This document shows, one piece after another, positions 1-36,216 of a stretch of DNA of 64,000 bases. The notes beneath the pieces are model-generated. The model was given only the letters and a program-made list of their open reading frames with translations. It was not told the origin of the DNA and ran no database searches. Source of the stretch: Candidatus Poribacteria bacterium (GTDB taxonomy: Bacteria > Poribacteria > WGA-4E > WGA-3G). The stretch covers positions 6,505,657 to 6,569,656 of the forward strand of contig OZ251998.1 of NCBI GenBank assembly GCA_965246985.1, read 5' to 3'. The translations under genes and the position numbers were made by a program. Positions within the stretch are counted from its first letter, which is position 1, and each line of letters starts with the position of its first letter.

Positions 1-711
1 TTGTGGATTCTGTCTATGAAGTTCTCGTCTGCGTATAGGGATAGGCGATATACAGAATATATCCGTGTTATCTACAATAGGATTACCCCCGATAGTGTGA
101 TATGCCAAACACCAAGAATCTACACAATGTGCCTCAAAGGTTTCTGATAACTTGTTAGACGATTTCTTGAGACCGAGCCTATCACGTATCTCTTTGGTTT
201 CCCAACCTTGAAGGGTTAGCAACTTCCACCGCTTTTCTATTTCTGTGTAGAACCACTGCTTACCGACTTCCAATGGACTAAAGGATTTATTCCACTTCTT
301 AGCATGCTGTAGCGTCCGTGCCTTCATGTCTTCTACACAAACGTATGTGATTGGGTAAAGTTTGGACAACCAATCAAGCACCCGTAGTTTCCAATCCCAT
401 CTTGCACGTGTGCCTGCGGGTATCCGCTCTCTGTTGGCAAGGCGATTAGTGCGGTTCTTGCGATTTGGACACTTCCGTGAACGCCTACCTCTACGCAACT
501 CACGACGCTTTTGAACTTTTTTGCCCACATTGCTATGAGCATCTGCTTGAACATTGAAGTAGGTATGTGTTTCCGATTTGACGGTAAAGCCTTCTTTCTG
601 ACTACCGGGGTCAACACCTACACAAATCTCTTGTGTATCTCTATCAGACGGTTCTTTGTTGAGACGGATACAATATATGCCGTTATCCCAATAATACCCA
701 ATTAACCCCAT
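1..711 (-). CDS. IscB/IsrB-like (OMEGA-family) RuvC-fold nuclease, C-terminally truncated by the window edge; lacks an HNH insert
   Basis: Open minus-strand frame of 237 codons from ATG at 711 to the window start with no stop; it is absent from the ORF track because it has no stop in the window. My translation is MGLIGYYWDNGIYCIRLNKEPSDRDTQEICVGVDPGSQKEGFTV...KKVQKRRELRRGRRSRKCPNRKNRTNRLANRERIPAGTRARWDWKLRVLDWLSKLYPITYVCVEDMKA...ETFEAHCVDSWCLAYH.... It shows a RuvC-I-like motif (VGVDPGS), an Arg-rich bridge-helix-like segment, a RuvC-II-like motif (VCVED) and a RuvC-III-like motif (H-x2-D-S-x2-LA). About 65 aa lie between motifs II and III, with no Cys/His HNH pattern. In-frame stops lie just upstream of the ATG, so a PLMP-type N-terminal domain is either absent or lost. 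Confidence 0.4.
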   Translation of the reverse strand, partial: MGLIGYYWDNGIYCIRLNKEPSDRDTQEICVGVDPGSQKEGFTVKSETHTYFNVQADAHSNVGKKVQKRRELRRGRRSRKCPNRKNRTNRLANRERIPAGTRARWDWKLRVLDWLSKLYPITYVCVEDMKARTLQHAKKWNKSFSPLEVGKQWFYTEIEKRWKLLTLQGWETKEIRDRLGLKKSSNKLSETFEAHCVDSWCLAYHTIGGNPIVDNTDIFCISPIPIRRRELHRQNPQ

Positions 712-1098
712 TTGTAGCGCGAGGTCCCTGTGCCTCGCAATGCTGACTTGATCAAAAGACTTCTAATCACGTTAATTGGGTATAAGGTGTCGCTGCGCTA
801 CGTTGGACGAGTTTCCTCGCACGTGCAGCATGCATTGGCATAAGGTGTTGTCCATCTTTTGTCTTTACAGGTACAAACATAAGTTTGTATTCTCCTTTTC
901 AGGGTTTATGTTTCCCCATCCAGATCACAGTGTCCAAGAAGAATCAGACTTGGGGAGCATCCGAAACATTGCTCTAACTGCCACGCTAGGACACCGCGAT
1001 ATATTACTGTAGAAAACTGTTTAACTTGTGGAGTGGACGCTGGCTACGCTTCGCACAAGCCTCGCCTTTTAAGGCGAGGTAGTTGACTTTTAGTACAT

Positions 1099-1548
1099 TC
1101 ATTTCTGGTTATCTCCTGTCTGTAGCCAATTATAGGGGTTTTCGACTCGGACGTGCAATTTGGAACTGAGCCTTTTTGCCCTTCTGAGGAGCCGGTCATC
1201 TGTTGTGAGAAAGACATCCGCATTGCCTCTTTCTGCACACGCAAGGTGCAAAGCATCTAATCGCTTGAACCCTAACTTTTCAAGATCTCTACCCCTTGCT
1301 CTTTCTATCTCACGAATCGAAACGTTTATGTATGCATCGGCCATCTGAGATTTTATTTGGATGCGTTGACTCACATCTCGGTTATTGTCAACTTCAAGCG
1401 TTAGAACTCCGCTAACAATCCAGTGCCAATCGCCTGTACTGAAATTTTTGAGGATTATTTCAATAGCTTCCGTTTCTCGACGAATCCTTGCTGGTGTCTG
1501 ATCATTAAATGGTCGACTCAAACAACACGTATCAAGATAAATTTTCAA
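1099..1548 (-). CDS. PIN-domain protein (VapC-like ribonuclease); no antitoxin partner detected
   Basis: 149 aa with the N-terminal MKIYLDTCCL motif and conserved acidic residues typical of the PIN fold. It lies directly downstream of thiG on the same strand. The 60-nt gap before it holds no recognisable antitoxin ORF. Confidence 0.55.
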   Translation of the reverse strand: MKIYLDTCCLSRPFNDQTPARIRRETEAIEIILKNFSTGDWHWIVSGVLTLEVDNNRDVSQRIQIKSQMADAYINVSIREIERARGRDLEKLGFKRLDALHLACAERGNADVFLTTDDRLLRRAKRLSSKLHVRVENPYNWLQTGDNQK

Positions 1549-1608
1549 GTTGTAAGTGTGTCTTCACTCAGTTACGCGTATCTTTTGTTGACAAAAGCGG
1601 CTTTGTTT

Positions 1609-2379
1609 TTATTCAATCATTCCCGTTTGTGGGCTTGAGGCAGTCGCGTAGAGTTTCCGAGGGATACGTCCTGCTAAAAATGCTGCTCTACCTGCTTCAA
1701 CCGCTTTCTTCATCGCCTCCGCCATCAGTACGGGACGATGTGCTTTCGCGACTGCTGTGTTGAGCAGTACACCGTCACACCCTAACTCCATCGCTATCGC
1801 TGCATCCGATGCTGTCCCGACACCGGCATCCACAATGAGCGGCACTTGTACGAGATCTCGGATAATCTGGATGTTATACGGATTACGGATCCCCATCCCT
1901 GAGCCAATCGGCGCACCCAGTGGCATCACCGCTGCACAACCGATGTTTTCCAATTTCTTACAAGTAATCGGATCATCATTACAATATGGAAGCACAGTGA
2001 AACCGTCTTTGACCAATGTTTCCGCTGCACTGAGCAGCTGCTCCACATCCGGGAATAGCGTCTGTTCATCCCCAATAACTTCGAGTTTGATAAGCGATGT
2101 CTCAAGTGCTTCGCGCGCAAGGTTCGCAGTTAGGATCGCGTCCTTCGCTGTGAAACAGCCAGCGGTATTCGGGAGGATCGTCATACCACGTTCACGTAGG
2201 AGCGCGAACAGGTTTTCACCGGAGGTGTCCGTAAATTTCACACGGCGCATCGACACCGTCGCGATTTCGGCACCACTCGCGGCGATAGCCTCCGTCATTA
2301 TATGGAAACTCGGGTAACCTGCTGTTCCAATAAGTAGCCTTGATGTATAAGTTTGGTCTGCGATTTTGAATTCTTGCAT
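1609..2379 (-). CDS. thiG: thiazole synthase ThiG
   Basis: 256 aa, the ThiG length. Shows the characteristic LIGTAGY..., KLEVIGD and [11 protein letters not shown]...[10 protein letters not shown] motifs. Confidence 0.9.
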
Positions 2380-2432
2380 ATTTTTAATGATTGGGTTTGC
2401 TCAGTTATTTCCGAGACCTACTGGCTAAAACC

Positions 2433-2738
2433 CTATTTTTTGTAGAGTGGTACGCCGATACGTTCAATCTGTTCAACCATTTCAGGGTTACGGATGTTCT
2501 CGAAGATAGACAAATCGATGGTATAAGGTAGCAGCTGATCATCCAGATCATTCGCGATTCGGGAGAGGATTGTGTGTGTCAGCGCATCCCCACCGCGAAG
2601 CGTTAGGTCAATATCAGATCCGTTTTTATAGTCACCTCTGGCGCGCGAACCGTACAACACCACCTCTTCTACCTGCGGATATTGAACGAAAACATCGCGG
2701 ATTTTTTGGAGCGTCTGGTTAGATAAGCCGTATTTCAT
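2433..2738 (-). CDS. minimal nucleotidyltransferase (MNT/MntA-like antitoxin)
   Basis: 101 aa with the GSRARGDY...SDIDL nucleotidyltransferase motif (GS-x9-D-x-D). Its start lies 2 nt after the stop of the upstream HEPN-family gene. Confidence 0.75.
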   Translation of the reverse strand: MKYGLSNQTLQKIRDVFVQYPQVEEVVLYGSRARGDYKNGSDIDLTLRGGDALTHTILSRIANDLDDQLLPYTIDLSIFENIRNPEMVEQIERIGVPLYKK

Positions 2739-2740
2739 TT

Positions 2741-3190
2741 TTAAAGGTTTCCTGCCTCTTTCAACTGTTCCAAGTGAACGAGGAACCTTTCAAATTCAGG
2801 AAAATAAGTAGTGCAGATAGCAGTGACAACTTGGGCTGCGGTTTCCTCATCGTAAGTATGAGAGGTTAAGTTGCGTTTGTCAACCATGTCCATCCAAGCT
2901 TCGCCGTTTTCAATCAGACCGTTCCTAAAAGCCTCTCGGGTTGTGTCGCGCGAACCGTACAGATTCACTGTACCTTGCGCTTCAAGGAAGTTCTTCAGCG
3001 TCTTCCAAGCAAGTTCATGCGTGTATTCAAAGCCTTGTATCAATCCTTGTGCTTCTAAGTCTGAGAGTTCCCGTTGTTCCGCAAGCTTGACTGCTGCCTT
3101 TAATCGAGCGAAAGCCCTCTCAAAACTATTCGCGCGTTGAATCCAACGAATCTCTTGGCTTTTCATGGTGTTCTGCCTACAGTTATCCAC
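2741..3190 (-). CDS. HEPN-superfamily 'nucleotidyltransferase substrate-binding' protein (HI0074/HepT-like toxin partner of MNT)
   Basis: 149 aa. Contains an R-x4-H motif (RNLTSH), the HEPN Rx4-6H signature. Forms a two-gene module with the MNT gene. A likely true start is the internal ATG at 3166 (MKSQEIRW...). Confidence 0.7.
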   Translation of the reverse strand: MDNCRQNTMKSQEIRWIQRANSFERAFARLKAAVKLAEQRELSDLEAQGLIQGFEYTHELAWKTLKNFLEAQGTVNLYGSRDTTREAFRNGLIENGEAWMDMVDKRNLTSHTYDEETAAQVVTAICTTYFPEFERFLVHLEQLKEAGNL

Positions 3191-3200
3191 GAGAAATTTT

Positions 3201-3300
3201 TAAATTAGTCAGGACTTACGCAATTTTTCCATGAAACGCTACATATTGCGCCATTGACGAGGTTAGGAAACCTCGCCAGCAAGGGGGACTGCGTAAGTCC
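3201..3300. repeat. palindromic extragenic element at the toxin-antitoxin/thiS boundary
   Basis: An inverted repeat, ggacttacgcaa ... ttgcgtaagtcc, encloses an inner hairpin cgaggttaggaaacctcg followed by ccagcaaggggg. Related cgaggtt...aacctcg + ccagcRaggg units occur at 56893-56967, and ccccgccagcgaagg occurs at 46139-46153. Confidence 0.4.
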
Positions 3301-5842: not shown

Positions 5843-6685
5843 CTACCGAATATCTAATGTGTTGTGCTGATGTCGCCACGGCATTGCGTAACGCTCCAAC
5901 AGCGTCATCAATCCAAAGAGACTTAAACCTAAAAGTGTTAAACAGAAAATGGCGGCAAATACGAGTGAAATCTGCATCCGTCCATTCGCATACAACATCA
6001 GGAAGCCGAGTCCTGCCTCTGCTCCCACCCATTCACCGATGACCGCGCCAATCGTAGAAATTGATATACCGATCTTCGCGCCGGAAAAAATAAACGGCAA
6101 TGCCGACGGGATACGCACTTTCCAAAGTATCTGCCACCGAGTCGCCCGCAAAATCCGAAACAGGTTTACCGTGTCCGGATCGGTGGACTTCAAACCGTCT
6201 AATGTGTTCAGCACGATCGCAAAAAACACAATCAGTGCCGCCATGACTACTTTTGAGGCAATCCCGAATCCGAACCACAGTACTAACAATGGCGCGATAG
6301 CAAACACCGGCACCGTTTGTGAACCGATAACATACGGATAGAAGGCTTTCTCCAGCATCGGAAACTCAAACATCAGCACGGCTAACGGAATGCCGATGCT
6401 AATCGCGAGGACAAACCCAAGGAGCATCTCTTCCAAGGTTACAAGCGTATGTCTCAGTAATTGCGAATGTTCCACAAATAGCGTCACCACAATTTTCGAG
6501 GGTGCTGGCAAAATGTAGCGCGGTATCTCGAAAAAATGCACGGCTCCTTCCCATACCCCTAATACTGCGAATAGGATAGCCACAGGGACCGCGAATTTGC
6601 TGAACATTATGTATCCACTCCTTAACGCAAAAAAGCCGTCTTCCGTTTTGGGTATATGCCAAAAGGAAGCGGCTCCGCGTCTCAT
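5843..6685 (-). CDS. ABC transporter permease (NitT/TauT family, ThiX-like)
   Basis: Polytopic membrane protein with a binding-protein-dependent transport signature region. Probable true start is the internal Met at about 6607 (MFSKFAVPVAILF...). The ATPase gene is not in the operon. Confidence 0.7.
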   Translation of the reverse strand: MRRGAASFWHIPKTEDGFFALRSGYIMFSKFAVPVAILFAVLGVWEGAVHFFEIPRYILPAPSKIVVTLFVEHSQLLRHTLVTLEEMLLGFVLAISIGIPLAVLMFEFPMLEKAFYPYVIGSQTVPVFAIAPLLVLWFGFGIASKVVMAALIVFFAIVLNTLDGLKSTDPDTVNLFRILRATRWQILWKVRIPSALPFIFSGAKIGISISTIGAVIGEWVGAEAGLGFLMLYANGRMQISLVFAAIFCLTLLGLSLFGLMTLLERYAMPWRHQHNTLDIR

Positions 6686-6984: not shown

Positions 6985-8265
6985 GCGCGGTTCCATGAAG
7001 ATTAAATAATTAATTCGGTAATAATCCGACATAGTGTAGCAACTCCTGTGACCCGCCTTTGAACTGTTCCATGAAGTCGCTGACTTTCTCCTGAAGGGCT
7101 GTCCAGTCATTGCTGAGACGATGCAGATGTATGACAGCTTGACGCGCCCAGCGCCACAACTTCTCAATCGGATTCGTCCAACAGGCATACGTTGGGAGCT
7201 GCAATATCTCAATAGGGAGTTTCTCAAGTTTGCCTATTTTCTTTGACGGTTTCTCGCTCCAATTCGGTGGGGTCGGTCTAACAAACCTCGTCGTCTGTGG
7301 CAGAAGTGCTGCCATAAGATTCGCGTGAAAGTGGATCGCCCGATTGTCCTGGATCAAATAGATGCGTTCAGCGTTTGGGTAGCGTTGGCAAATCTGGGTG
7401 TAAAATGTATGGAGTGCGACAACCGTGCAGCTTTTGACTTGCTGATAAACAACATCTCCGGTGTGTGGGTTGAGCGCCCCGATGCCATAGCAGGTCTCCT
7501 CTGGGAGATAACTCTGGCGTGCCAAAGGACATTTCGTCCCTGTCTCCGCCCAGTCTTTTGCGACTCTCGGTTGTAGATTGAAACTAAACTCGTCTTGGTA
7601 AACGACAACGCAAGTTTCTGGGTTTTCACGGGCTTCTTCTAACGCTTGCTTGATGCGAGAAAGTTTTTCAGCATAATCGGTATCAGGACTCCGCAGATAT
7701 TCTCTGGCACGCTTATAGCTGAGACCCAAGCGTGAGAAGATCTGATGAATGCCGGGGAGCGATAGACCCTCAAGCCACGGCACGACCTGACCGAGACTGC
7801 GGAGCGTCCAGCGCGTTTGATGCTCATTGACGCTTCCCGGATCCTGACCGATTGCCACTAAGAGTTCCGACCCGGCTTCTTCGGGCGACTTAGGTGAAAA
7901 AGCAGGTTTGCGACCTCGACCAGGTTTATTAGACAACCCGCTAATACCGTGTTCGCGATACCGACGCAGCCAAGCATAAACGGTATCGGGGTCGCGTTTT
8001 TTCAACAAACCTCTGCGGGCGACTTCATGTGGAGAAAAGCCTTCATGGATTTTCAACAACGCTGTCGCACGCTCTCGAAGATAAGCCGGTTCGCCTTTAT
8101 CCCGAAGATCAACGAGGGCTTGTATTTCGCCTTCAGTTAACTCCAACTTATGGTGTTTTGCCATCAGAGAATACCTCCTTTGGCAATAGGATAACACGAA
8201 TAACAATATTACCGAATTAATATTTTAATCTTCATCAAACCGCGCCTACCGGGCCTGGGGGGTCC
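6985..8265 (-). mobile_element. IS630-family insertion sequence, intact, with about 39-bp imperfect terminal inverted repeats
   Basis: Left inverted repeat 6985-7023 is ggcgcggttccatgaagattaaataattaattcggtaat. Right inverted repeat 8227-8265 in reverse complement is ggcgcggtttgatgaagattaaaatattaattcggtaat. They enclose one DDE transposase gene. The exact ends and target-site duplication were not resolved. Confidence 0.8.
7010..8164 (-). CDS. IS630/Tc1-mariner family DDE transposase
   Basis: An N-terminal helix-turn-helix region (…LRDKGEP…WLRRYREHGISGL) is followed by a DDE_3 core (VVYQDEFSF…, IYLIQDNRAIH…, PTYACWTNPIEKLW). Start taken at MAKHHKLELTEGE (ATG at 8164). Confidence 0.85.
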   Translation of the reverse strand: MAKHHKLELTEGEIQALVDLRDKGEPAYLRERATALLKIHEGFSPHEVARRGLLKKRDPDTVYAWLRRYREHGISGLSNKPGRGRKPAFSPKSPEEAGSELLVAIGQDPGSVNEHQTRWTLRSLGQVVPWLEGLSLPGIHQIFSRLGLSYKRAREYLRSPDTDYAEKLSRIKQALEEARENPETCVVVYQDEFSFNLQPRVAKDWAETGTKCPLARQSYLPEETCYGIGALNPHTGDVVYQQVKSCTVVALHTFYTQICQRYPNAERIYLIQDNRAIHFHANLMAALLPQTTRFVRPTPPNWSEKPSKKIGKLEKLPIEILQLPTYACWTNPIEKLWRWARQAVIHLHRLSNDWTALQEKVSDFMEQFKGGSQELLHYVGLLPN

Positions 8266-9593: not shown

Positions 9594-10332
9594 AAAGTGT
9601 ATGGGAACCAAAACCGACAAAGCGGTTTTCACTGTAACAGGTACAACGCTTTTAACGTTCTTAATAGCAAGCCGTATTGGAACTATTTGGATTCTCTATC
9701 CGAATGTGTTGCTTGCGGTCTCTTTATTGTTTTACTGTATCTCACAAACTGATGAAGATGTGTCACTGCTCTCCAGCAGTTCTATTTTTGGGCTCGCAAC
9801 GGTGTTAACCTACGCACCGATGGACTGGTTATTTTCTCGGAAGGCGCGCCTCATCTTCTATCTGCGTTCAGATTTTTTGGCGAATACAACGACACCGATT
9901 GCGATAATTTTAAACTGGGTGGTGTTCGTGACCCTTGCAGCCTACTGTTATCAAAGGCTCACAGCGATTTGCCAAACCCGTTTCGCATCGGATTCTGAAA
10001 ATCGGAGGGGCGGTTTGATAGGAACTGCGATGTTGGCGGCGGGTGTCACGGGCATCGGTGCTGCGGTTGGAAGTATCGTAATTTACGCGCTTGGTGCATC
10101 ACATCTATGGCTATGGAATGCAACGCAGATAGATCGGATACCACAGATTGCATCCGTACCAATTTTTGTGCCCCTCGCTTTTCTATTCACGTTTCTGTTG
10201 TGTCCGTACTTCTTTGGCGTCGCTAATCGTTTTCTGAGGGCGCAACACGCAGGTGTGGCAGGGATACGGTGTGGCATCTTTATGGGGGCACTGCAGTTTC
10301 TCAGTTTTCTGCTGTTTTACGCATGGAAATAG
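9556..10332 (+). CDS. hypothetical polytopic membrane protein
   Basis: Multiple hydrophobic segments and no recognisable family motif. The start may be the internal Met at about 9601. Confidence 0.35.
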   Translation: MREKIRNQERFAEKCMGTKTDKAVFTVTGTTLLTFLIASRIGTIWILYPNVLLAVSLLFYCISQTDEDVSLLSSSSIFGLATVLTYAPMDWLFSRKARLIFYLRSDFLANTTTPIAIILNWVVFVTLAAYCYQRLTAICQTRFASDSENRRGGLIGTAMLAAGVTGIGAAVGSIVIYALGASHLWLWNATQIDRIPQIASVPIFVPLAFLFTFLLCPYFFGVANRFLRAQHAGVAGIRCGIFMGALQFLSFLLFYAWK

Positions 10333-24249: not shown

Positions 24250-25492
24250 AAGGGGAAGGATGGCGGTATGTGTTATCAGAATCACAGAAAGCGCGGTGGG
24301 TGACATCCATGCAGCACGTATTGCCGGGTAAACACCAAAAATGACCCCCATGAAAATAGAAAAGATGACAGATATAACCTATACTCCGCACTTCTAATTT
24401 CGGATTTTTGGTATTTATTTTTTAAACCCACGTGGTTCCAACGTTCAACAAGCAATTTCAGGTGAATCAGAGAAGATATACGTGCGAAATGAAATCTTAT
24501 TTACCATCTCTAAATTTTATTATACTGTTTGGATCCTTTCGTGACGTGGGTTTGTCTAAAAATACCAAAATGTGTCAAAACAAGTGCGGAGTGTAGGATA
24601 TAAGTATCCACTGCACGGATAATACCACAGGTCACTCCTCCACAATCGGAACAATACGAACTGCGATGCGTGCCATGCCGTGGGCGAAGAGCCAGCCCCC
24701 GGCAATACCGAGTCTGTGTCTTTTGCGGAGTACCTCCTTGGCAGAGTTAATGACAGTATAGACATCTGTGCCTTTTTGAAAAAAGACGATGAGTCTTTCA
24801 ACATAACGTTCTGAAGATATACGCTGTTGACGTGTTGTCAATGGAACAAAAATGATGTCATCCATTGACATGCCACGGCTGAGGCTTTCGCCTCTGGGCA
24901 CCATGATACCAACCACGCGGCACCTAACCCACCTTCTGCGCCTGAGGCGGATTTTCACCTCTTGTCCAAGTGGCGGAGTATTTCTGAATAACTCTGTAGC
25001 GGCGTTGACACTAAGGACACAAACCTGCTTTGCGTTGTCAACATCGTCTTCAGAAAGGAATCGCCCGTGTTGCACTTCCCATCCCATAATGTGGGCGTAG
25101 TCTGCTGTCACACCTTCAATAGTCGAACGTATTTGGACACCTTGGTTAGATGTAACCCATCTCGGATACTTTCGATTTTGTGGCAAGACATAGAGCACAT
25201 CGGGGCATTCTGCTTCAATGGCACGTGCATCAGCGAGAGAGTATCGCTCGGTTGTCCGCTTCTTCGGCTTTCCCCGTGGATACGTATAAGGGCGGACCCA
25301 GAATCGCACGTGGTTGGGGCCGCCAAGTTTTTCAATGTCGTCGGCTATAATTTTTTGGGTGCCGTCGCCAATGGCCATCATGCAGAGAACACTCGCGACC
25401 CCAATAAGGATACCGAGGATGGATAATCCAGAGCGGAGTCGGTTTTGCTGAAGGTGCGCAATGCCAGAGGTTATCGCATCATAGCACTTCAT
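24250..25492 (-). pseudogene. FtsX/MacB-type ABC permease, cassette copy 1, disrupted by an in-frame deletion and a MITE insertion
   Basis: The N-terminal 255 aa are nearly identical to the intact paralog at 36660-37922. Then an in-frame 258-bp deletion joins …RKRHR to LGIAGGW…. The extreme C-terminus (…GVIFGVYPAIRAAWMSP) lies at about 24290-24350, separated from the body by a 230-bp MITE. Confidence 0.65.
24372..24602. mobile_element. MITE with about 60-bp terminal inverted repeats inserted in permease copy 1
   Basis: Left end is atataacctatactccgcacttctaatttcggatttttggtatttattttttaaacccacgtggt. Right end in reverse complement is atatcctacactccgcacttgttttgacacattttggtatttttagacaaacccacgtcac. 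The interior is AT-rich and non-coding. Confidence 0.6.
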
Positions 25493-27551
25493 GGTATAAA
25501 TAAGGTTTCATGTCCCAAAGCAGAACGGTACCATCATAACTACCACTTGCCAGAAGTTCGCCATCCGGTGTAAAAGCTAAATCCTGTACATCCGTTGTAT
25601 GTCCCCAGAAAGTGTGTATATTTTCACCCGTTGCGACCTCCCATATCCTTATGGACACTCTGTCCACCCCCCTTATCCACCACGCCCCAGAGACGAGGTA
25701 TTTTCCGCAGGGTGAAAATGTAAGCGCAAACGGTTTGCGACAGGTTTCAGGTAGCAGGATAAGCATGCGCGTTTCCAAGGTTGTTGCATCCCGCAACCGA
25801 ATATGATCATATATCCCACAAGCGATTGTCGTGCCACAGGGCGAGAAAGCGAGTTTGTAAGGGTTACACTTATAGCGTCTCCCTATTTTTCTATTTTTTT
25901 CGATATATTGGTGTATCTGATCTGGATCCCCTCTATAGAGGGACCTATCTTCTGGTAGTTCTGTAGGGAACAATCCGATCTGTTCACCACTGACTATATC
26001 CCAGAGTCTTACTGTGCGATCTTTGGCGACGGTTGCGAGGTGTTTACCGCTTGGATGGAAAGCGACTGTTAGAATATAATTTGTATGTCCTGTAAGCATA
26101 TTGACTTTCTTCCCAGACTGTGTGTCCCATACACCAATGTCTCCTGTACCGCCTGTAGGTGCTGTACCAATGAGATGTTCACTCGTAGGTGAAAAACACA
26201 TTGCAGCGTCAAATCCTTTACTGTCTGAGAGTTTTATAATGAGGGTTTCAGACGCAATATCCCAGATTTCAATTGAACCCCTCGGAAGTTTGCAAAGTGC
26301 CAGTCGTTCTCCACAAGTAGACAATGTGCTGACTCGGAATAACTGCTGTCTTTCTTCCGTTGTGAGATTTTTAGTTTGAGTCGTGTATTGTGCCTGCATC
26401 CGCTGCGTTGGGAAAACCTGTTCTGTTTGTCTCTGTGCCACATTCCAGCATACGAGCTGCGCACCAAACATTTCCCGACTTGTTAATGTCTTACCGTTTG
26501 TAAAAAAAGCAACTGAATGTACAACAGGTTGATGATCAGCGGCATTTGAAACTTTCGTTGACAGTGGCCCGACTGTCCATACACAGAGCTCGCTATGCGA
26601 CAGGATGGTCGCGATGTGTGCTCCATCGGTTGAAAAGTGATCATGCCTGCGGTTCTGACATTCAAAGGTATCTATTTTCTCTTTTCGGATAGCATCCCAA
26701 ATCACAACTTGATGATCGTAAATATCGGCAACGCGCAGTGTGCTATCAGGTGTATAGGCAGGGATTAACCTTCTCCCATCATAAATCGTGGGTTCCGTTT
26801 CCAAAGTGCCGTTGTAAACATTCCACACCAACACCTCAGTATTCTGATTGACAGCAGCAAGATATTGCCCACAAGGCGAAAAGATGAGACTACGGTACGC
26901 CAAGGGTGCTGAGCAGTGAAGGTCCGCAATGTGTTCACTTGTTTCTATATCGGAAATCGTGAGCGTGTGACGCGGGGTTCCAGCGGACACATATCCGAGT
27001 AAGTTCCCTATCGGAGAGAAACAAATTGGAAAGTGGTGTCCCCTCTCTTCTTCTGCTACGTCAATCGGAAAGTTTGTGATGGGTGCGTTCGTGTCTTTTT
27101 GCCAAGCGTAGACAACATTTTGCTTGTCAAAACAAGAGGCAGCTAAGTATTGGTTGTCTTGAGAAAAGCAGAGCTGCGAAAAACATCCTAACATTGCTTT
27201 TACATTCTTGCGATGGTCTATCTTTGCGAGGCACTGCAGACTTTGTGTATCCCATACCTTCACAACACCATCAAGATTGCTAGTGACAATCAACTGCGTG
27301 TCGTGTGAAAAGGCAATGGTATTAAGCATCCCGCGTTCTGTTTCAAATAAGGCAAGCGGTTTCAACGACAACCTATCATATAACCAACAGCCGATCGGCG
27401 TTGCTACAGCCAGATATTTACCATCAACCGAAAAGGACATATCCGACACGCGCCCCCTTGCTAATCTGCCGATCGCACCTTCAGGCAGGTGCCAGGTTGT
27501 CACATCCGTATCAACAGCACTTCGCATCAAATTAGACTTTTCTGATTGCAA
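25479..27551 (-). CDS. cytoplasmic WD40 beta-propeller protein, cassette copy 1 (690 aa)
   Basis: No signal peptide. N-terminal W-x-LPEGA-x-GRLARG module, then at least 12 WD repeats, ending …ASGSYDGTVLLWDMKPYLYHEVL. The stop overlaps the start of the permease. Confidence 0.8.
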   Translation of the reverse strand: MQSEKSNLMRSAVDTDVTTWHLPEGAIGRLARGRVSDMSFSVDGKYLAVATPIGCWLYDRLSLKPLALFETERGMLNTIAFSHDTQLIVTSNLDGVVKVWDTQSLQCLAKIDHRKNVKAMLGCFSQLCFSQDNQYLAASCFDKQNVVYAWQKDTNAPITNFPIDVAEEERGHHFPICFSPIGNLLGYVSAGTPRHTLTISDIETSEHIADLHCSAPLAYRSLIFSPCGQYLAAVNQNTEVLVWNVYNGTLETEPTIYDGRRLIPAYTPDSTLRVADIYDHQVVIWDAIRKEKIDTFECQNRRHDHFSTDGAHIATILSHSELCVWTVGPLSTKVSNAADHQPVVHSVAFFTNGKTLTSREMFGAQLVCWNVAQRQTEQVFPTQRMQAQYTTQTKNLTTEERQQLFRVSTLSTCGERLALCKLPRGSIEIWDIASETLIIKLSDSKGFDAAMCFSPTSEHLIGTAPTGGTGDIGVWDTQSGKKVNMLTGHTNYILTVAFHPSGKHLATVAKDRTVRLWDIVSGEQIGLFPTELPEDRSLYRGDPDQIHQYIEKNRKIGRRYKCNPYKLAFSPCGTTIACGIYDHIRLRDATTLETRMLILLPETCRKPFALTFSPCGKYLVSGAWWIRGVDRVSIRIWEVATGENIHTFWGHTTDVQDLAFTPDGELLASGSYDGTVLLWDMKPYLYHEVL

Positions 27552-27832
27552 AAAAATAGACCTCTAAGGATTGTGTGCACAGTAGGGTTGTAATTTGGGT
27601 TGTCTGAAACGTGCAGCACACATCGTAGTTTGCTCACACATTGTAGTTTGCTCACACATTTCAGACAATCCAGACATAAACATTTTGTGTTTAAAACAGT
27701 ATGATAACCTCTGATGAACCAAATGTTTCTACATTTCATCTAGGTTATTTGGTGCACTATCGGTTGTGACAATTGCCTTGACTATCAGCACCGTCACAAG
27801 TTACTGAACCATCGGGTACATTATTATTACAA

Positions 27833-28136
27833 TAGACATTATAATGGTTTAATTGTGTGTTTGTTCATCCATTTTTTTGGTAAAATCGCGGAGACCTACT
27901 CCTAAACGACAACCGTTAGGAGACCTCTCTTTGATAAAGGTTCTACGCGTCGCGCGAACTTTTAGTTTCCGCGGTATACGCCACAAACTAAAAGTTTGTG
28001 CTACAAGGTACGTCTTTGATAGACGAGAGACGAGAAACCTTTAGGGCGGACGAGAAGTCTCAACTGAACTGACGTTTATACCGATACCCCTAAAAGTTAA
28101 TTTACACAACATGTTCTTAAATCGTTATAACGTCTA
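27833..28136. mobile_element. MITE (family with TAGACATTATAA terminal inverted repeats) flanked by two degraded copies of the Cys-rich gene
   Basis: Ends are tagacattataatggtttaattgtgt… and …gttcttaaatcgttataacgtcta. The about-45-bp ends match the 35228-35419 element and the interior differs. One side (27752-27829, minus strand) reads …YCNNNVPDGSVTCDGADSQGNCHNR*, a Cys-rich tail fused directly to the 5' leader. The other side abuts the stop codon of copy B. Confidence 0.5.
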
Positions 28137-28529
28137 ATATGTATCACCTTTCTCATGACAAGGATTTTCAGTTCCTGTACCACAGCTGCTATCACTACAA
28201 CCACTGCCACAGCTATATGAGCCAGTCGAATTGTTACAGTTAGAATCTGCGACACAATCACAAGACGCGTCTGTTTGATCATCATTGTCTAAGCAGCTGC
28301 AACTATAAAAGTTAGATACTTGATCGGTGCTGCCACAACAGCCGCCTGTAGTTGCAGCGACTAAAGTTGCATCGCCGCCACCACAGCATCCTTTCGCTGC
28401 TTCAGACTCTGAGGTGTCCCAACTGCCTGTCAGGAAGAAAATACAACTACCAATTAAATCATACCAGCGGATGTTGTTTTTGTCAATTTTTTTAAGAGAA
28501 ATTAAAGTGTTTTCTTCGGAAACTTTACA
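28134..28529 (-). pseudogene. Cys/Gly-rich small secreted protein, cassette copy 1, lacking a start codon and part of the signal sequence
   Basis: Frame open from an upstream TGA: …KKIDKNNIRWYDLIGSCIFFLTGSWDTSESEAAKGCCGGGDATLVAATTGGCCGSTDQVSNFYSCSCLDNDDQTDASCDCVADSNCNNSTGSYSCGSGCSDSSCGTGTENPCHEKGDTY*. It has no in-frame ATG/GTG/TTG. Compare the intact paralogs at 34769-35227 and 40133-40621. Confidence 0.5.
28458..28486 (-). promoter_or_regulatory. near-consensus sigma-70-type promoter (TTGACA-17-TATGAT)
   Basis: The minus strand reads TTGACAaaaacaacatccgctggTATGAT. It lies within a block that recurs at 36240-36305. Confidence 0.4.
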
Positions 28530-28658
28530 TCATTGAGGCGCAAGGAGCCGGGAGAGCAAGTTTGGTGTAAGGGTTGGGTGACCCAACCCCTACGAGATCA
28601 GAAACTTCATCAAATCGCGCCTAAAAGAAGTAGGTATGGCGCAAAGAACGTAAGTCCG

Positions 28659-29003
28659 CTAATCCACTAAAGAGATAACCCCTTTCTTGCGTTGGAGTAC
28701 GGCATCGTAGAACCGCATCGTGCCAACGCAGTCTTGGATACTTGATACCGGTTCCCGGTTCTCACGAATGGCGTTAACAAACTCGGTGAGACTGATGCCG
28801 TCGCCGGTCAGTTCGCCGTTGCGTTCATCAGAGAAATTAGAGGTAAAGGTATTACCAGATTCGGTGAAATGCTGAGCACCCCACAACCCATCTAAAACAA
28901 TGTATTCGTGTTGTCCAGTAATTTCGATGTAATCGTAGTTACGCCGCCACAACCGTTGGCTGCTGAGTTGCCTGCTGTAATGCCAAGCAATGTTAGCCCC
29001 CAT
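28659..29003 (-). pseudogene. ectopic duplicated 3' fragment of the Gfo/Idh/MocA oxidoreductase gene (43256-43560)
   Basis: The 114-aa ORF is nearly identical to the last roughly 100 aa of the 43256-44203 protein (…SQRLWQRNYDYIEITGQHEYIVLDGLWGAQHFTESGNTF…LQRKKGVISL). The downstream hairpin gtaagggttgggtgacccaacccctac is copied too (28567-28595 vs 43222-43250). A solo IS630-like end (cttcatcaaatcgcgcc, 28602-28618) abuts it. Confidence 0.7.
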
Positions 29004-29872
29004 GCCAGCTTTCGTGCATAGCGGCGTAAGTGTTCTACGTAGGTCAGTAGCAGATATCTTATGCCACGCAATATAAGGACCATCAACGGTGGAAAAAGCA
29101 TAATCGCAGCAAGATGTGTATTAGAGCTGTATCCGCTTCGGTAGGCGGGGCTTATGAAATAGAGCCAGGGAACAAACATAAGCGTCCAGAGAACATACTC
29201 TATGAGACGATTTTCTGTGTCTGTGGTGCAAAACTTCCAAAGTTCTAAGGCAATTATAATGATGAGGAAGAAACCAAACCCTTCCCAACTCATTCCGCCA
29301 AGGAAAACAGTGGCACCGCAGAGCGCGGTTGTTATCCATCTCCGCCATCCCAGCTCCATACGCTCTTTCCAAAGGTAACTTATCACCGCAAGAATACCGA
29401 ACATCCAGCACCACGCGTCTCTGTCGCCGAAACCAACGGAACTACGCTCAATACTCCCCGGTAAAGTCGCAAGGAGTAGGATAATAGTAGCAGTGAAGTA
29501 GAATCCAAAGACACGGGCAAGAAATAGACAAAGCACACCGAGCCCGACAATGAAACAGATAGTAGGAAGATAAATTTGAATATGGTACAGTGTCAGTTCT
29601 GGAAAGATCCACCCGATGGACTTATGGATATAAGCAATACCATAAGCATAGAGATACAAACGTTGTCCATTTTCTCTACCTTCCGGCAACCAACGGCGCA
29701 TATCGCGTGCTGGAAGAACATTTTGCTCAGCGATCTCTTGTGCTTGTAGGGCGTAGAGATAGGCATCATTAGACGTAAACTGATTGTCAGGTAATCTTCC
29801 GACATCTTGAACGCGGATCCAGCAGGCAAGCAGCAGAATCGCACAGAGAAGAATTTTTTGATAGAACTTCAT
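29004..29872 (-). pseudogene. GT-C-fold membrane glycosyltransferase-like protein (ArnT/PMT/STT3-like), 3'-truncated by the inserted fragment
   Basis: N-terminal TM helix, then …TSNDAYLYALQ… (DxD-like) and many TM helices. The ORF-track ORF (28892-29872) reads out of frame into the duplicated oxidoreductase fragment, so the C-terminal half of the gene is missing. Confidence 0.4.
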
Positions 29873-29878
29873 AGTGTA

Positions 29879-31239
29879 TTACAAACGGAAGGCATATTGC
29901 CAACCGAGGGTGAGACTCCATACGTTTTTGAGTTGTGTCCCTGTAAGATTCTGATAAATAGGCAGAGTGAACTCAACTGCAATCCGCTGTCCTGCCAACG
30001 ATTTTCCTGCTGGCACCATCAGGTTGCTTGAAATAGCAACGTCAAGCCGAGTGCCGCCACGAAAATCAGGTCGATGGCTCGGACTCATGTTTGTATTTAA
30101 ATCGGGATGGCTACCGGTAATATGTCCACTGTGCGAAAATAGAAACCGTCCGCCGAGACTGAGCCAATCGCTGAGCTTTCGCGCGCCCCATGCAGTAGCG
30201 TTGACAGAATTCCCGTGTTGGTATTCACCGCTATTAGTATGCAGAGGAAACGTTCCGCGTAATTGACTACCATAAGACCAATTCCCGTAATACCCGAAAA
30301 GCGTTATGCCTGATCGTCCTTCAACGGAACCACTCCCAAGTTGCATCGGATAGGGTAAGATGTTTCCATCCAGCCCAGTCTGTTCAATAGAACCCGTCGG
30401 CAATGACATACCGATGTTTCCAATGAAATTGAGGTGGTCTGTTTTCCACAATGTGAGTAGAGACTCTAATTTGACATCGCCAAGTCCTGAACTTGTCATT
30501 TCGTGCGTGCCCACGGGATGCGCGTGATGACCTGTTGCGTGGTCGTGTGAACCTTCCATCTCCATGTAGCGTTGCTGATAGTTTCCTTGTTTTCGTCCAA
30601 GCATATGGGGATCCAGTTGATCAATGAAAGGCTATCAATCCCAGTCCATATCTGCTTTCAAGAGGGGTTAAAAGGTCTCAAATCACAACACCCTACCTTT
30701 GAAACCCTTATCATAACTGGGCATCAACTTTTTCAAGGCCTCTTTGGTGCCGGAAAAGCGATAAAAATCGTGGTTTTGGTTTCCTTTTTCTCTCAAAGGT
30801 GTGTAGAAGTTGTTTGCCACCTTTTGAGGTGTTGTTTTCTCAATGTGTGTGTAGGTTTGTGCGTGATTAGAGCAAGTATGGTTTCCTACACTTATTGGAC
30901 AAAAACAAGGTAGTTTGCCATTACCATGAGCGTGATTTTGTCGTGTGGTGCGAACATAACCCCGAAACTATGCATTTTCATGTCCATCTGTGTCGGCACC
31001 GTCATAAAATCTTTTAGCACGTCAGCAGTCTCAAGAGCTGTAGTGCCGGATTGTAGTCCCCGCATATCCATTGCCATGAATCTGTAGGATAGCATCCATT
31101 CGCGAGTTTTATGTGCATGTTCACCCATGACACCGATAGGCGCGTGACTATCGGGACGCGAACTTGGGGAATCTGCATAAGCAGCGTTGAGAGTCAGTAA
31201 AAGTAGCAAAACAGTTAAAACATTTATGTGTGATTTCAA
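29879..31239 (-). pseudogene. outer-membrane beta-barrel protein, split into two ORFs by about 290 bp of unreadable sequence
   Basis: The N-terminal piece (30892-31239) has a signal peptide plus …HAPIGVMGEHAHKTREWMLSYRFMAMDM…. The C-terminal piece (29879-30604) has alternating amphipathic beta-strands ending …WQYAFRL, an aromatic-x-aromatic C-terminus. The 30605-30891 gap has no continuous frame. Confidence 0.45.
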
Positions 31240-31302
31240 TCACTTCTCCTTATGAATGGTTATCGGTTATGAGAAAAAATGCTTCACCGATAACTATTTG
31301 TG

Positions 31303-32570
31303 TTATGTATCCGTTCGGAGGGCATCGATAGGGGCCATCTGCGATGCTCGGATAGCAGGATAGACACCAAAAATGATACCCATGAAGATTGAAAAGAGGA
31401 CAGAAATCACCATCCATCGCACAGACAGCACCACCGGCCACACCTCTACAATGGGTAGGATACGGACAGCAACGCGTGCCATACCGTGGGCGAAGAGCCA
31501 GCCACCAGCGATACCGAGCAGTGAACCACAAAAACAGAGGCTCATAGATTCGGTTAGAATTGATAGAAGATATCGATGCATCTTGCGCCGACGGCTTTTC
31601 GCAAACCGATCTCGCGCGTCTTCTCACCGACGGAGACAAGGCAGATATTCATAATCCCGATGCCACTGACAAGCAACGAGAAACCCGCAATGCCACCCAA
31701 GGCAATCTTTATCATTTTTTCAATGCGTTCAAGTTGTTTGACAGTTCGTTTGGGAATCCAATCATATACAAAGTTATCGGTACCCCGGTGTCTTTTACTA
31801 ATCACCTTCCGGGCGGATTTTACCACATCGGAAGCGTCTACGTCTTTTTGAAAAAAGATAATAAGCCTTTCAACATAGCGGATGCCCGTAATACGTTGTT
31901 GATACGTTGTTATCGGAACGCATATCATATCATCTAAACTCCCCCAGGTAATACTGAGGTTCCTCCCTTTCGGTGCCATGGTACCGACAACGCGCATCCG
32001 AACGGGTGTTTGCCGCCAATGATTCCGAAGTTTTATCTCTTGACCGATGGGGGAGACATTTCCGAACAACTCTTCAACTACGTTTGCACCCAAGACGCAG
32101 ACCTGTGTGGCGTTGTCTATATCGTTCTCGGAGAGAAATCTACCCGCTTGCAACTCGTACCGCAAGAGTTCGGCATAGTCTGCTGTTACGCCTTCCAGAT
32201 CAGCACCTCTGAATTGCCCGCCCAGGGGGCTGGTGACAAATGTATTATTTCTCCGATTCCGAGGTAGGACCCCTGTGACCTCCGGGCATTCTGCCTCAAT
32301 CGCAGGAGCGTCCTCCAAAGTATATCGCTCCGTTGTTGGATATCGTCGGCCGCGTCTCCAGCCAGATGTGTGTGTCCAGAATTGGATTTGATTTGCCCCC
32401 CCGATTTTTTCGATGTCATCGGCGATGATCTGTTTCGCGCCATCCCCGATGGCCATCATACAAAGGACACTTGCAATGCCAATGAAGATGCCGAGGATGG
32501 ATAATCCGGCACGGCTTTTATTTTCTTGGATATGCTTGATACCTGCAGCAATTGCCTCATGGAATTTCAT
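31303..32570 (-). pseudogene. FtsX/MacB-type ABC permease, cassette copy 3, split by a 1-nt deletion (frameshift)
   Basis: ORFs 31554-32570 and 31303-31581 overlap by 28 nt in different frames. Alignment to copy 2 shows caatttttgacagaatctat in copy 2 against caattctaaccgaatctat here, one base shorter. Confidence 0.65.
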
Positions 32571-32595
32571 GCGGCTCCACCCAATCTATGTTGGA

Positions 32596-34590
32596 TTAAG
32601 AACCCATCACGGATTTCAGGTCCCAGAGGAGGATGGTGCTGTCAAAACTCCCACTCGCTAAGAGGGTGCCGTCGGGTGAAAACGCGAGATCTTGGACATC
32701 GGTCGGGTGTCCCCAGAAGGTGGCGATGTTTTCGCCGGTGGCAACTTCCCACAAGCGAATAGGCACCTTTTCTGTTTCCACGGCCCTATTCCACCACGCG
32801 CCAGAAGCAAGATATTGCCCACAAGGTGAAAACGCCAAGGCACGCGGATTTCCATTGGTAGGTGCATGAGGAAGAGTCAAAAGAGTTCGACAATTATTGA
32901 CATCCCACAATCGGATTTCCGTTGCCATGCCACAAGCGATCTTATGACCGCAAGGTGAAAACGCGACAGTATAGACACGGTTGACACGGAACTCCGGATT
33001 TTCTTTCCCCGTATCGATGTCCCATAGATTTGCCATCGTGCCAGAAGAACTCGGAACACTTACAAGGTGTTTACCGTCGTGGCTGAATATAAGGCGGCTG
33101 ATACGATTATGATCATCATCCCAATTCCCTTCTAAGGGGAGAGTGTGTGTGAGCACACAGCGCACGTCACCACTTCTCATATCCCATACATACAGATGCC
33201 CTTTGCTATCCCCGCACGCGATGAGATGTCGTAGCGGGGCGTGTGCTGCGGCAGTCACCACTGCCTCTGGGTCGGGAAGTGTAAATGTCATAGGTGTCGT
33301 GTTTTCGTCGGCTTCCCCTATTTTAACGGTTATTTTAACAGTATTTTCATCATACGCAAATGCTGTCGAGTGAATTTTCTCTGAAGTGGACACAGAAACG
33401 GCTCGTGGGTCACCGGATATTTTGAAAAAAGTGGGCGGTTGCATGGGGTTGGCAATATCCCATAATAGCGTGCTTCCATACCTTACAAACCCGGCTGCCA
33501 CCTTTTTGCCATCTTGTGAGAACGCTACGGAATTCGGAAAACCGACATGTAAATGCGGCACCTTGCGGGGTTTGGTATCCCCGGGTGACCAGACTGCCCA
33601 TTCCTTTCCCCCAGCAACGACAAAATGCGAACTGCTTGAAAAAAGTGCTTTATCAATCTCCCATTCCTTTTCAACGTACGTGTAGCGTTTTTCATGACGT
33701 TCCACGTCCCACACGACGACAGTGTTTCTTTCCAGAGCATTTTCCAGAGTCTGAAGAACGCCTTCCTGTGAATAGCAGACGCTCATGCGAGAGGTGCCAT
33801 CATAGTTCTGATATACTCGCTGCTGTTCCCAAGTATTCACATTCCATACGTGCACTGTGCCTTTATCGCTGCCGATGGCCAGAGTTTGTCCACAAGGTGA
33901 AAAGCAGAGGCTGCGCACAAAGCTCGGTTGTTCGGTAAGACAGGCGATGCGCTCACCGGTTACGACATCCCACACCAAAACAACATCGGGGCCATCCGTT
34001 GTCCCGGCGGGAGCCGTACACGCCAGCAGGCGACTGTCTGGCGAAAAAGCAACGGGTCGAGGGAGGGAGGGGTAAGAACTGCGTGTTTCTCTTTGGGGGT
34101 CATGGAACGTAGCCAGCGGTGTGCCGGTTCTGGGGTCCCAGGTGTAGACAATCTCACAACGGCTACCTGTTGCGGCCAGGTGCTGGTTATCAGGTGAAAA
34201 GGCAAGAGACTTAATTGCAGTCGTCCTAGGGACTGGCTTTTTTAACCCTGGCCGCACAATTTTTGTAATGCAGGTGCTCCGCTGGATATCCCACACTTTG
34301 ATAACACCATCCCAGTTGCCGGTCGCAGCCAATCGCCCATCAAGAGAAATAGTAATGGCACCCAGCATTCCTCGTTCTGTTTCCCATAGAGCAACAGGTT
34401 GCATTGTCGCGAGTTCATACCACCAGAGCCCAATTTTGGTTGCGGCTGCGAGGTATGCTCCATCCGGCGATACTGCCATCGCCATCACAGTTCCACGCCC
34501 GAACCGAGAAATCGCACCATCCGGTAAAGCCCAGCTCATTGGATGACCTTTATCAGCGACAATGGGCGTGGACCCTGTTTTTTCTGACAT
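32596..34590 (-). CDS. cytoplasmic WD40 beta-propeller protein, cassette copy 2 (664 aa)
   Basis: AGGAGG sits 8 nt upstream of the ATG. N-terminal W-x-LPDGA-x-SRFGRG module, WD repeats, and a C-terminal …ASGSFDSTILLWDLKSVMGS. Confidence 0.8.
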   Translation of the reverse strand: MSEKTGSTPIVADKGHPMSWALPDGAISRFGRGTVMAMAVSPDGAYLAAATKIGLWWYELATMQPVALWETERGMLGAITISLDGRLAATGNWDGVIKVWDIQRSTCITKIVRPGLKKPVPRTTAIKSLAFSPDNQHLAATGSRCEIVYTWDPRTGTPLATFHDPQRETRSSYPSLPRPVAFSPDSRLLACTAPAGTTDGPDVVLVWDVVTGERIACLTEQPSFVRSLCFSPCGQTLAIGSDKGTVHVWNVNTWEQQRVYQNYDGTSRMSVCYSQEGVLQTLENALERNTVVVWDVERHEKRYTYVEKEWEIDKALFSSSSHFVVAGGKEWAVWSPGDTKPRKVPHLHVGFPNSVAFSQDGKKVAAGFVRYGSTLLWDIANPMQPPTFFKISGDPRAVSVSTSEKIHSTAFAYDENTVKITVKIGEADENTTPMTFTLPDPEAVVTAAAHAPLRHLIACGDSKGHLYVWDMRSGDVRCVLTHTLPLEGNWDDDHNRISRLIFSHDGKHLVSVPSSSGTMANLWDIDTGKENPEFRVNRVYTVAFSPCGHKIACGMATEIRLWDVNNCRTLLTLPHAPTNGNPRALAFSPCGQYLASGAWWNRAVETEKVPIRLWEVATGENIATFWGHPTDVQDLAFSPDGTLLASGSFDSTILLWDLKSVMGS

Positions 34591-35419: not shown

Positions 35420-35479
35420 TTATTCTTTCCTTTCCCATATAGGGGTTGTAAAATACAAAAAGTTATACAAAGTTTTAAC

Positions 35480-36163: not shown

Positions 36164-36216
36164 ACAATGTCAAATTTTTTCCTAAAAAGTTACAAAATCC
36201 TTAGAAAAACACACCA

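Follow-up and report, generated by a model that had tools for sequence, protein, structure and literature searches.

Why does a toxin-antitoxin pair lie between thiS and thiG, two genes whose products act together, and is it a recent arrival or an old part of the operon? We investigated this question in a stretch of 64,000 nucleotides (nt) from a Candidatus Poribacteria bacterium (assembly GCA_965246985.1, contig OZ251998.1), the whole of which is called the window here; all coordinates are positions in this 64-kb window. The pair consists of a HEPN toxin and a minimal nucleotidyltransferase (MNT) antitoxin. The locus is the thiamine (thiazole-branch) operon of Candidatus Poribacteria, in which the thi genes all lie on the minus strand, in the order thiamine pyrophosphate (TPP) riboswitch, ABC permease, NMT1 binding protein, thiO, thiS, HEPN, MNT, thiG, PIN. 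Profile matches from Pfam, NCBIfam and Rfam with E-values far beyond chance identify these genes and confirm the order and common orientation that a first-pass annotation had given at nearly the same positions. In our view HEPN-MNT probably represents a functional type VII module, acquired by the operon in a single event, then inherited vertically and by now entrenched.

A type VII HEPN-MNT pair between thiS and thiG

The HEPN toxin (3166–2741, minus strand) is a protein of 141 amino acids (aa) of the HI0074/NTase_sub_bind family (PF08780, E 3e-45; TIGR01987). Its start at 3166 agrees better with homologues than the start of the open reading frame (ORF) at 3190, which corresponds to 149 aa. 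The RX4HXY motif is present as RNLTSHTY at residues 98–105 (R98, H103 and Y105). The MNT antitoxin of 101 aa (2738–2433, minus strand; PF18765, Polbeta E 1e-15, and PF01909, NTP_transf_2) begins 2 nt past the HEPN stop codon in the same orientation and contains the nucleotidyltransferase motif YGSRARG...DIDL (GS-x(9-13)-DxD; sequence YGSRARGDYKNGSDIDL). Both hallmarks of type VII HEPN-MNT systems were thus found, a HEPN protein with RX4HXY (Rx4-6H) and an adjacent MNT with GS...DxD. HEPN passes the HI0074 subfamily model TIGR01987 with 101.7 bits against a cut-off of 55.8, whereas the NCBIfam equivalogs HepT_toxin and MntA_antitoxin are not reached (24.5 and 38.1 bits, cut-off 60 each). This places the pair in the HI0074/Legionella branch and not with the Shewanella-type equivalog, and we classify it as a regular member of that branch of the type VII toxin-antitoxin systems.

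Comparison with the Legionella pneumophila pair lpg2920/lpg2921 agrees with this classification. The window HEPN is about 55% identical to 8XDJ (E 1e-40) and the window MNT about 50% identical to 8XEH_E (E 3e-23), and these identities, together with the Pfam and NCBIfam matches, bear out the earlier assignment of a HEPN/MNT pair between thiS and thiG. In Legionella HEPN comes first and MNT second, the MNT is short and without helix alpha4, and it AMPylates Y105 of the HEPN RX4HXY motif (PMC11586414). The window pair has the same gene order and tight packing and likewise a MNT of about 100 aa that lacks helix alpha4 at the C-terminus; R98, H103 and Y105 are found at identical positions, and GS...DxD is also common to both. 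The two systems differ in that the Legionella genes overlap by 8 bp while the window genes are separated by a 2-nt gap, and in that the Poribacteria pair, whose activity is predicted, sits between thiS and thiG and is fixed there across a bacterial lineage.

In Shewanella oneidensis MntA/HepT (SO_3165/SO_3166) the HEPN RNase is neutralised by its cognate MNT adenylyltransferase (PMC7641770), and the Shewanella MNT antitoxin binds and represses its own promoter (PMC4621449). The window pair shares the two-domain HEPN RNase/MNT logic with MntA/HepT and with Haemophilus HI0073/HI0074, its HEPN belonging to the HI0074 family, but the order is MNT-then-HEPN in Shewanella and HEPN-then-MNT in the window. 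From these likenesses we infer that the window HEPN would be an RNase, which MNT would neutralise by binding it and AMPylating Y105.

HEPN and MNT share the peptide motif LYGSR...(F/Y)(R/K)NG, which in this strain is accompanied by 17 of 18 identical bases at 2639–2656 and 2944–2961. Gene conversion was rejected as the source of this direct repeat, which reflects the common LYGSR amino-acid motif; DNA identity at the two sites varies between genomes, with exact runs of 5–15 nt. A literature search on Poribacteria, toxin-antitoxin and thiamine found nothing relevant, nor did one on HEPN and thiG, although the latter was blunted because 'thiS' also matches the word 'this'. In kind, the system is a known one (type VII HEPN-MNT); what is unusual is its stable, integrated context in the thi operon.

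The arrangement is shared by related Poribacteria

A search with HEPN returned more than 120 clusters of homologues (at 90% identity), which are 74–99% identical to it and, where named, all belong to Ca. Poribacteria. The genomic context was examined for six homologues (86, 84, 82, 76, 75 and 74% identity), which led to 10 loci with enough flanking sequence (L162, L163 and L165–L172; L001–L178 are labels of related loci recovered by homology searches). The order permease, substrate-binding protein, thiO, thiS, HEPN, MNT, thiG was found in 10/10 of these sufficiently long loci, and thiG is usually followed by a beta-barrel-like gene of 400–420 aa. The close strains L001 (GCA_030341885.1), which is 97.6–99.2% identical across the locus, and L177, which was found through PIN, also have the arrangement thiS-HEPN-MNT-thiG. 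Since orthologous operons carry the same intervening genes, the arrangement is old and fixed. The first-pass annotation had called the pair an unusual hitch-hiker and proposed a synteny comparison with relatives, naming intervening genes shared by orthologous operons as the result that would speak against its view; this is the result we obtained.

The DNA identity of HEPN and MNT declines in step with that of the neighbouring thi genes, gene by gene. Ratios of nonsynonymous to synonymous divergence (dN/dS) were calculated by the Nei-Gojobori method for the window, L162, L163 and L165, with dS ranging from 0.7 to beyond saturation. They amount to 0.055–0.13 for HEPN and 0.075–0.13 for MNT, compared to 0.075–0.13 for thiO, 0.11–0.19 for thiS and about 0.03 for thiG. 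HEPN and MNT are under purifying selection as strong as thiO. The RX4HXY motif is intact in 116 of the 120 HEPN homologue clusters listed; R, H or Y is substituted in four.

Elsewhere thiS and thiG are usually adjacent, as had been assumed: among 134 other thiG loci for which upstream sequence exists, 81 contain a ThiS-like ORF no more than 300 nt away, and tblastn detected HEPN/MNT in none of the 134. The metagenome scan with ThiG, whose best match is 71% identical and which contains no Poribacteria, is usable only as a background for thiS-thiG spacing; the genome scan with ThiG has only 2–3 Poribacteria among the matches listed and gives no frequency for the arrangement, but its ThiG-anchored loci place the source organism in Candidatus Poribacteria. 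L004 (ThiG 79% identical) has thiS, a spacer of 253 nt and thiG without the module, and no module remnant is recognisable in this spacer. L004 and the 134 loci without the module indicate that insertion between thiS and thiG does describe its origin, but that the event is old.

A recent, strain-level hitch-hiker would be a mobile cassette, bounded by a palindrome and expressed only as a passenger of the riboswitch transcript. Several facts would suit such a cassette: toxin-antitoxin modules are as a rule mobile, thiS and thiG usually adjoin, a terminator separating thiS from HEPN is not predicted, and the strain carries several recent mobile-element insertions. It is nevertheless extremely improbable, since the pair is neither mobile nor patchy: it occupies the same site in the 10 judgeable loci as well as in L001 and L177, that is in every relative sampled, including those with a HEPN identity as low as 74% and with saturated dS. 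Its divergence parallels that of the thi genes, it has a conserved internal promoter, and the palindrome is missing from all loci but the window and L001, with an empty site in the 98%-identical strain L177.

The operon shows a mosaic pattern of divergence. Comparison of the window with L163 gives a dS of 0.7–1.1 for thiS-HEPN-MNT but of 0.24–0.36 for the flanking thiG, thiO and permease genes; among neighbours at 98–100%, identity drops to 92% for the gene of the substrate-binding protein in L001 and for thiO in L177. This suggests homologous recombination between strains at the thi locus. In L001, single-T insertions in homopolymer runs (L001:8761–8966 and 9641–9716) break the frames of thiS and MNT, due to either sequencing errors or real pseudogenisation. 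L170 contains an IS1595 transposase gene on the opposite strand and several small ORFs between thiO and thiS-HEPN-MNT-thiG (L170:2972–5677), and the thiS-HEPN-MNT-thiG block remains undivided there though cut off from the riboswitch.

A conserved predicted promoter in the thiS-HEPN spacer

A consensus scan detected a candidate internal promoter, P2, 5' of HEPN-MNT-thiG (3334–3305, minus strand; TTGATA-18-(TG)TATACT with an extended -10 TG). In 11 aligned thiS-HEPN spacers TTGA(T/A)A, a spacing of 17–18 nt and an invariant TGyTATACTAA are found, while the remainder can barely be aligned. As P2 is invariant despite saturated synonymous sites, we interpret it as the phylogenetic footprint of a functional promoter, putatively of the sigma-70 type and invariant across lineages.

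Terminator-like sites were detected by the consensus scan of the window neither between thiS and HEPN nor between MNT and thiG. Owing to the lack of a thiS-HEPN terminator, read-through of the riboswitch-controlled transcript is possible. The gap between MNT and thiG is 17–88 nt in most loci, and in L168, L169 and L002 the two genes overlap by 14 nt. With this promoter upstream and MNT directly adjoining or overlapping thiG, the toxin-antitoxin promoter probably drives thiG as well. HEPN-MNT-thiG (and PIN) would then be transcribed from P2, independently of TPP, and read-through of the transcript from P1, the promoter-like site upstream of the riboswitch, is a possible second input. Co-transcription of the toxin genes under riboswitch control, as initially proposed, can thus be at best half of the picture: read-through is possible, but the pair also has a conserved promoter of its own. 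A promoter and a terminator belonging to HEPN/MNT had been named as further evidence against a passenger; the conserved promoter was found, a terminator of the module's own was not.

Decayed modules and the probable entrenchment of the pair

The only variation found in the module at this site is decay. In L002, HEPN and the first 19 codons of MNT are deleted; P2 and the rest of MNT, which overlaps the start of thiG, are kept and thiG is intact. In L003, an in-frame deletion joins HEPN residues 1–83 to MNT residues 28–101 and removes RX4HXY; thiG is again intact, and tRNA genes and rpoD are located 5' of the fusion in place of thiS. The crossover is the motif common to HEPN and MNT (LYGSR...NG), and a GS...DxD-like site is re-created; the 18-nt HEPN/MNT repeat probably served as microhomology for this fusion. 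Both species without intact HEPN are also without thiS adjacency. The intact thiG in both cases implies that HEPN is dispensable for thiG.

How could such a module become entrenched? A type VII HEPN-MNT module would have inserted between thiS and thiG in the ancestor of the group and would have been inherited vertically with the thi operon since then. While HEPN is active, MNT could not be lost, which amounts to addiction. P2 and the 3' end of MNT would have become part of thiG expression, with P2 acting as a riboswitch-independent promoter for thiG (and PIN). The toxin itself would be selected for some benefit, probably in defence or stress response, because addiction by itself does not keep a toxin from decaying. 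Three forces would then act together in entrenchment: addiction to the antitoxin, coupling to thiG through promoter and translation, and probably a function for which the toxin is selected. In L002 and L003 the toxin is lost and the 3' part of MNT stays 5' of thiG; P2 is kept in L002. Three recent mobile insertions would have been added in this strain: an IS630 element 5' of P1, a 92-nt miniature inverted-repeat transposable element (MITE) in the HEPN leader and an IscB/IsrB-type element in the partner gene of PIN.

Purifying selection on the toxin requires a benefit beyond addiction, since toxin loss is neutral under pure addiction, and this would also fit a frozen accident, in which the module is kept for an unrelated function, e.g. 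abortive-infection phage defence, without any effect on thiG expression. HEPN and MNT proteins are found in defence contexts, PADLOC returned weak matches of the window MNT to candidate systems, and thiG of L003 survives without P2. Defence islands turn over fast, however, whereas the thi-operon site is stable, and L002 keeps the promoter and the MNT 3' part, overlapping the start of thiG, after toxin loss. This retention argues that the expression signals of the module matter for thiG, and we regard a frozen accident as unlikely.

The strict position between two proteins acting together, purifying selection equal to that on thiO, and MNT-thiG junctions that are tight or overlapping could also point to co-option of HEPN-MNT into thiazole/thiamine biosynthesis or its regulation in Poribacteria. 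Co-option would explain the fixed ThiS-ThiG position, the thiO-like selection and why L002 and L003 have lost both HEPN and thiS adjacency, a correlation drawn from two genomes. A search for thiF in the operon and in 20 ORFs of at least 220 aa at 8,300–42,800, covering part of one 64-kb window, found none. In one form of co-option, the pair would be more than a selfish or defence module and serve as a built-in regulator of thiazole synthesis: its promoter and translation signals would supply ThiG, and its ATP-dependent AMPylation switch and RNase would either make cofactor synthesis or growth depend on the energy or TPP status or process the thi mRNA; this form has a low probability. Its variants, namely an RNase that processes thi mRNA and sets ThiS:ThiG ratios, an ATP-sensing growth-cofactor switch or MNT acting on ThiS, are jointly just as improbable. 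The proteins retain exactly the conventional type VII motifs, and deletion or fusion of HEPN has left thiG intact. The chemistry likewise speaks against co-option, as nucleotidyltransferases of the Pol-beta type act on hydroxyl groups and not on carboxylates; on the whole we find co-option quite doubtful.

The preferred reading remains an entrenched, vertically inherited and functional module. Several points weigh against it. Sampling began from HEPN homologues, so the fraction of Poribacteria without the module is not derivable, and the only two species representatives reached through ThiG (L002 and L003) both have decayed modules. Between the window and L163, dS of thiS-HEPN-MNT is 0.7–1.1 compared to 0.24–0.28 for the flanking thiO and thiG, a contrast that may point to recombination between alleles instead of purely clonal descent. 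As a consensus match, P2 convinces only through its conservation, and promoters of uncultured Poribacteria are uncharacterised. L003 has tRNA genes directly upstream instead of P2, yet thiG persists, so thiG is not strictly P2-dependent. Toxicity, RNase activity and AMPylation of the Poribacteria pair are drawn from homology. Finally, if the partner of PIN described below were an essential antitoxin, its loss with PIN intact would need explaining.

A palindromic element in the leader of HEPN-MNT

The palindrome that had been placed at 3201–3300 as a boundary of the module is a real element, but its coordinates are slightly shifted and its position is not a boundary. It is a MITE-like element of 92 nt without strand assignment (3301–3210) with 12-nt terminal inverted repeats AGGACTTACGCA and an internal hairpin at 3278–3255 that resembles repetitive extragenic palindromic (REP) sequences. 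The inverted arms are perfect over 12 nt (3301–3290 and 3222–3211), and the predicted RNA fold has a free energy of -42.3 kcal/mol (z = -6.3). A 6-bp target duplication, ACTAAT, flanks the element at 3307–3302 and 3209–3204. Strain L177, which is 96–99% identical to the window, has the precise empty site with uninterrupted TATACTAATTTAAAAAT. The insertion point lies directly after the -10 box of P2, inside the 5' leader of HEPN-MNT.

The insertion is common only to the window and L001 and is missing from L162–L172. Copies of the arm sequence AGGACTTACGCA are also present in L169 and L171, at sites unrelated to this one. A short non-coding element with terminal inverted repeats, a target duplication and a relative with an empty site corresponds to a MITE; it resembles MITEs and REP-type repeats in its 92-nt length, its 12-nt arms, the 6-bp duplication, the empty site and the arm copies in related genomes, and differs in that no autonomous parent was identified and few copies exist in the available sequence. 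A role of the palindrome as module boundary or operator was rejected, as it is missing from other loci and L177 has the empty site; it is a strain-level insertion.

A family of small hairpins with the loop TTTCCTAA (GGTGCGGtttcctaaCCGCACC) is found in the window at 3255–3278 and 46066–46087 and at L003:5920–5945. These hairpins show compensatory stem changes and are located in intergenic regions and inside the MITE-like element, in L003 between MNT and thiG. The GGTTTCCTAACC hairpin was considered as an abundant repeat and rejected, with only 2–3 copies in the window.

The PIN gene and its interrupted partner

Downstream of thiG, a PIN-domain protein of 149 aa with a TTG start is encoded at 1548–1099 on the minus strand (PF01850, 28.5 bits, cut-off 23.6). 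Its putative acidic quartet, read from the sequence, is D6/E52/D98/D117. We found 1121 homologues, the named ones from Ca. Poribacteria; the motifs are kept in 110–119 of the 120 listed, and one homologue is named VapC by NCBI. An exact look-up found the window PIN sequence not on record. The L001 PIN has an early stop codon (147 aa).

The first-pass annotation had described this PIN gene as an orphan toxin. The search it suggested for a small antitoxin gene upstream was negative, no antitoxin-like ORF being present in the 60 nt between thiG and PIN; this part of the description stands, but relatives have a downstream partner. In L001, L177 and L178 a partner ORF of 162 aa starts at the PIN stop codon, the two codons overlapping as ATGA, and homologous ORFs of 157–165 aa are located 3' of PIN in L163, L168, L169 and L171; the partner is intact in L001, L177, L178, L163, L168 and L169. 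In the window, only a stub with the first five codons (MNVLK; 1088–1102, minus strand) is present, its ATG overlapping the PIN stop in the same way. Identity to the sister strains L001, L177 and L178 ends exactly at 1088, and the partner is cut after codon 5, which means that the window PIN was orphaned by a recent insertion.

The partner family (L001:11278–11766, L177:5447–5935, L163:8096–8569, L173:2520–2975 and L176:3464–3900) comprises proteins of 150–165 aa with an internal duplication, in which the motif YxLGxxxLxxKLGxxGxxRF...TGDY occurs twice. We detected 157 homologues, the named ones from Poribacteria. The AlphaFold model is all-helical (predicted local distance difference test score, pLDDT, 78.6), and no match was found in Pfam, NCBIfam, PADLOC, PDB sequences or PDB folds. 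Next to PIN paralogues elsewhere, the partner is located upstream in L173 (hhalign probability 99.2%) and fused to TPR repeats in L176. Since the partner occurs downstream or upstream of PIN or in fused form, the two genes form a genuine module, in which the partner is the presumed antitoxin.

The PIN domain with its acidic residues agrees with a VapC-type toxin, while an upstream VapB-type antitoxin was not found. As in VapBC, relatives pair PIN with a small overlapping gene, but VapB is located upstream, whereas the partner at the thi locus lies downstream, has 150–165 aa and is internally duplicated; a DNA-binding domain like that of VapB was not recognised in it. PIN is intact in the window, L001, L177, L178, L163, L168 and L169, a pseudogene with an in-frame stop in L171 and L172, and absent from L162, L165, L167, L170, L002 and L003. 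It is far more diverged than the neighbouring genes.

The partner gene is interrupted by the left part of a probable IscB/IsrB-type element (OMEGA, IS200/605-related; 1–1087, minus strand), which consists of a HEARO-like RNA (1087–887) and, after it, a PLMP/RuvC ORF that continues beyond the window edge. The HEARO match (RF02033) covers the full model length but is weak (21.5 bits, gathering threshold 83, E 0.054), and it starts at the 1087/1088 breakpoint. The translated ORF fragment matches Pfam RRXRR (PF14239) with 73.2 bits, above the cut-off, and PLMP and RuvC DPG motifs are found in ORF fragments with an apparent frameshift between them. The HEARO match, the PLMP/RuvC ORF and the RRXRR match together suggest an element of the IscB/IsrB type. 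A group II intron was also considered for the 1088 breakpoint, where GTGCG follows a hairpin; it has no Rfam support and was rejected, RRXRR and HEARO favouring the IscB/IsrB-type element.

The thi operon and its neighbourhood

The operon is preceded by the promoter-like site P1 (6868–6897, minus strand; TTTGCA-18-TATAAT), a prediction from the consensus scan with 10/12 matches, directly 5' of the TPP riboswitch. The riboswitch aptamer is full length (6859–6760, minus strand; RF00059, 67.7 bits, gathering threshold 54.3) and is found in the equivalent position in six relatives, L162, L163, L165, L167, L168 and L171, i.e. wherever the sequence extends far enough. Its expression platform contains, just 5' of the permease start, a terminator-like hairpin with U6 (6629–6675, minus strand) recognised from sequence and fold; the fold of 6775–6595 has -59.2 kcal/mol (z -4.5). 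The hairpin followed by U6 suggests regulation through transcription termination. With a THI-box aptamer 5' of the thi genes and an expression platform, the sequence has the features of a TPP-riboswitch-controlled thi operon.

The genes that follow on the minus strand are the ABC transporter permease (6607–5843; BPD_transp_1, PF00528, E 9e-33; start set by orthologue comparison), the NMT1/THI5-like substrate-binding protein (5800–4814; PF09084, E 4e-64), the glycine oxidase gene thiO (4769–3630; TIGR02352, 357.8 bits, cut-off 250.8), thiS for the sulfur carrier with its GG terminus (3590–3384; TIGR01683, 62.4 bits; PF02597) and, after HEPN and MNT, the thiazole synthase gene thiG (2379–1609; PF05690, E 5e-112).

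Just 5' of P1 we found an insertion sequence of the IS630 family (6996–8235, minus strand) with a DDE_3 transposase (8206–7010; PF13358 and helix-turn-helix domains) and visible terminal inverted repeats. It is missing from the sister strain L001, where the flanks are contiguous. The element interrupts a REP-like hairpin (GGCGCGGTT..AACCGCGCC) in its loop, a short way 5' of the operon promoter, and solo copies of its terminal repeat adjoin similar hairpins at about 46040 in the window and at L169:120–240. Further away, 24600–40100 contains three tandem paralogous pairs of a WD40 beta-propeller protein (660–720 aa) and a MacB_PCD/FtsX-type protein, with 63–90% DNA identity between copies, and an ORF with internal repeats is located at 49482–51434.

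Conclusions

The PIN gene and the palindrome illustrate that, when one genome is judged by itself, very recent insertions can give rise to false calls of an "orphan toxin" or a "boundary repeat". For the HEPN-MNT pair the meaning is a different one. Toxin-antitoxin modules are usually seen as mobile, patchy and soon lost; here such a module is locked inside an essential cofactor operon, inherited with it past synonymous saturation, with both genes under purifying selection and a promoter that probably supplies the biosynthetic gene 3' of it. Sister species in which the module is intact, fused or deleted offer ready comparisons, and the locus would represent a clean natural case for how selfish modules entrench, through promoter capture, translational coupling, addiction and a selected function.

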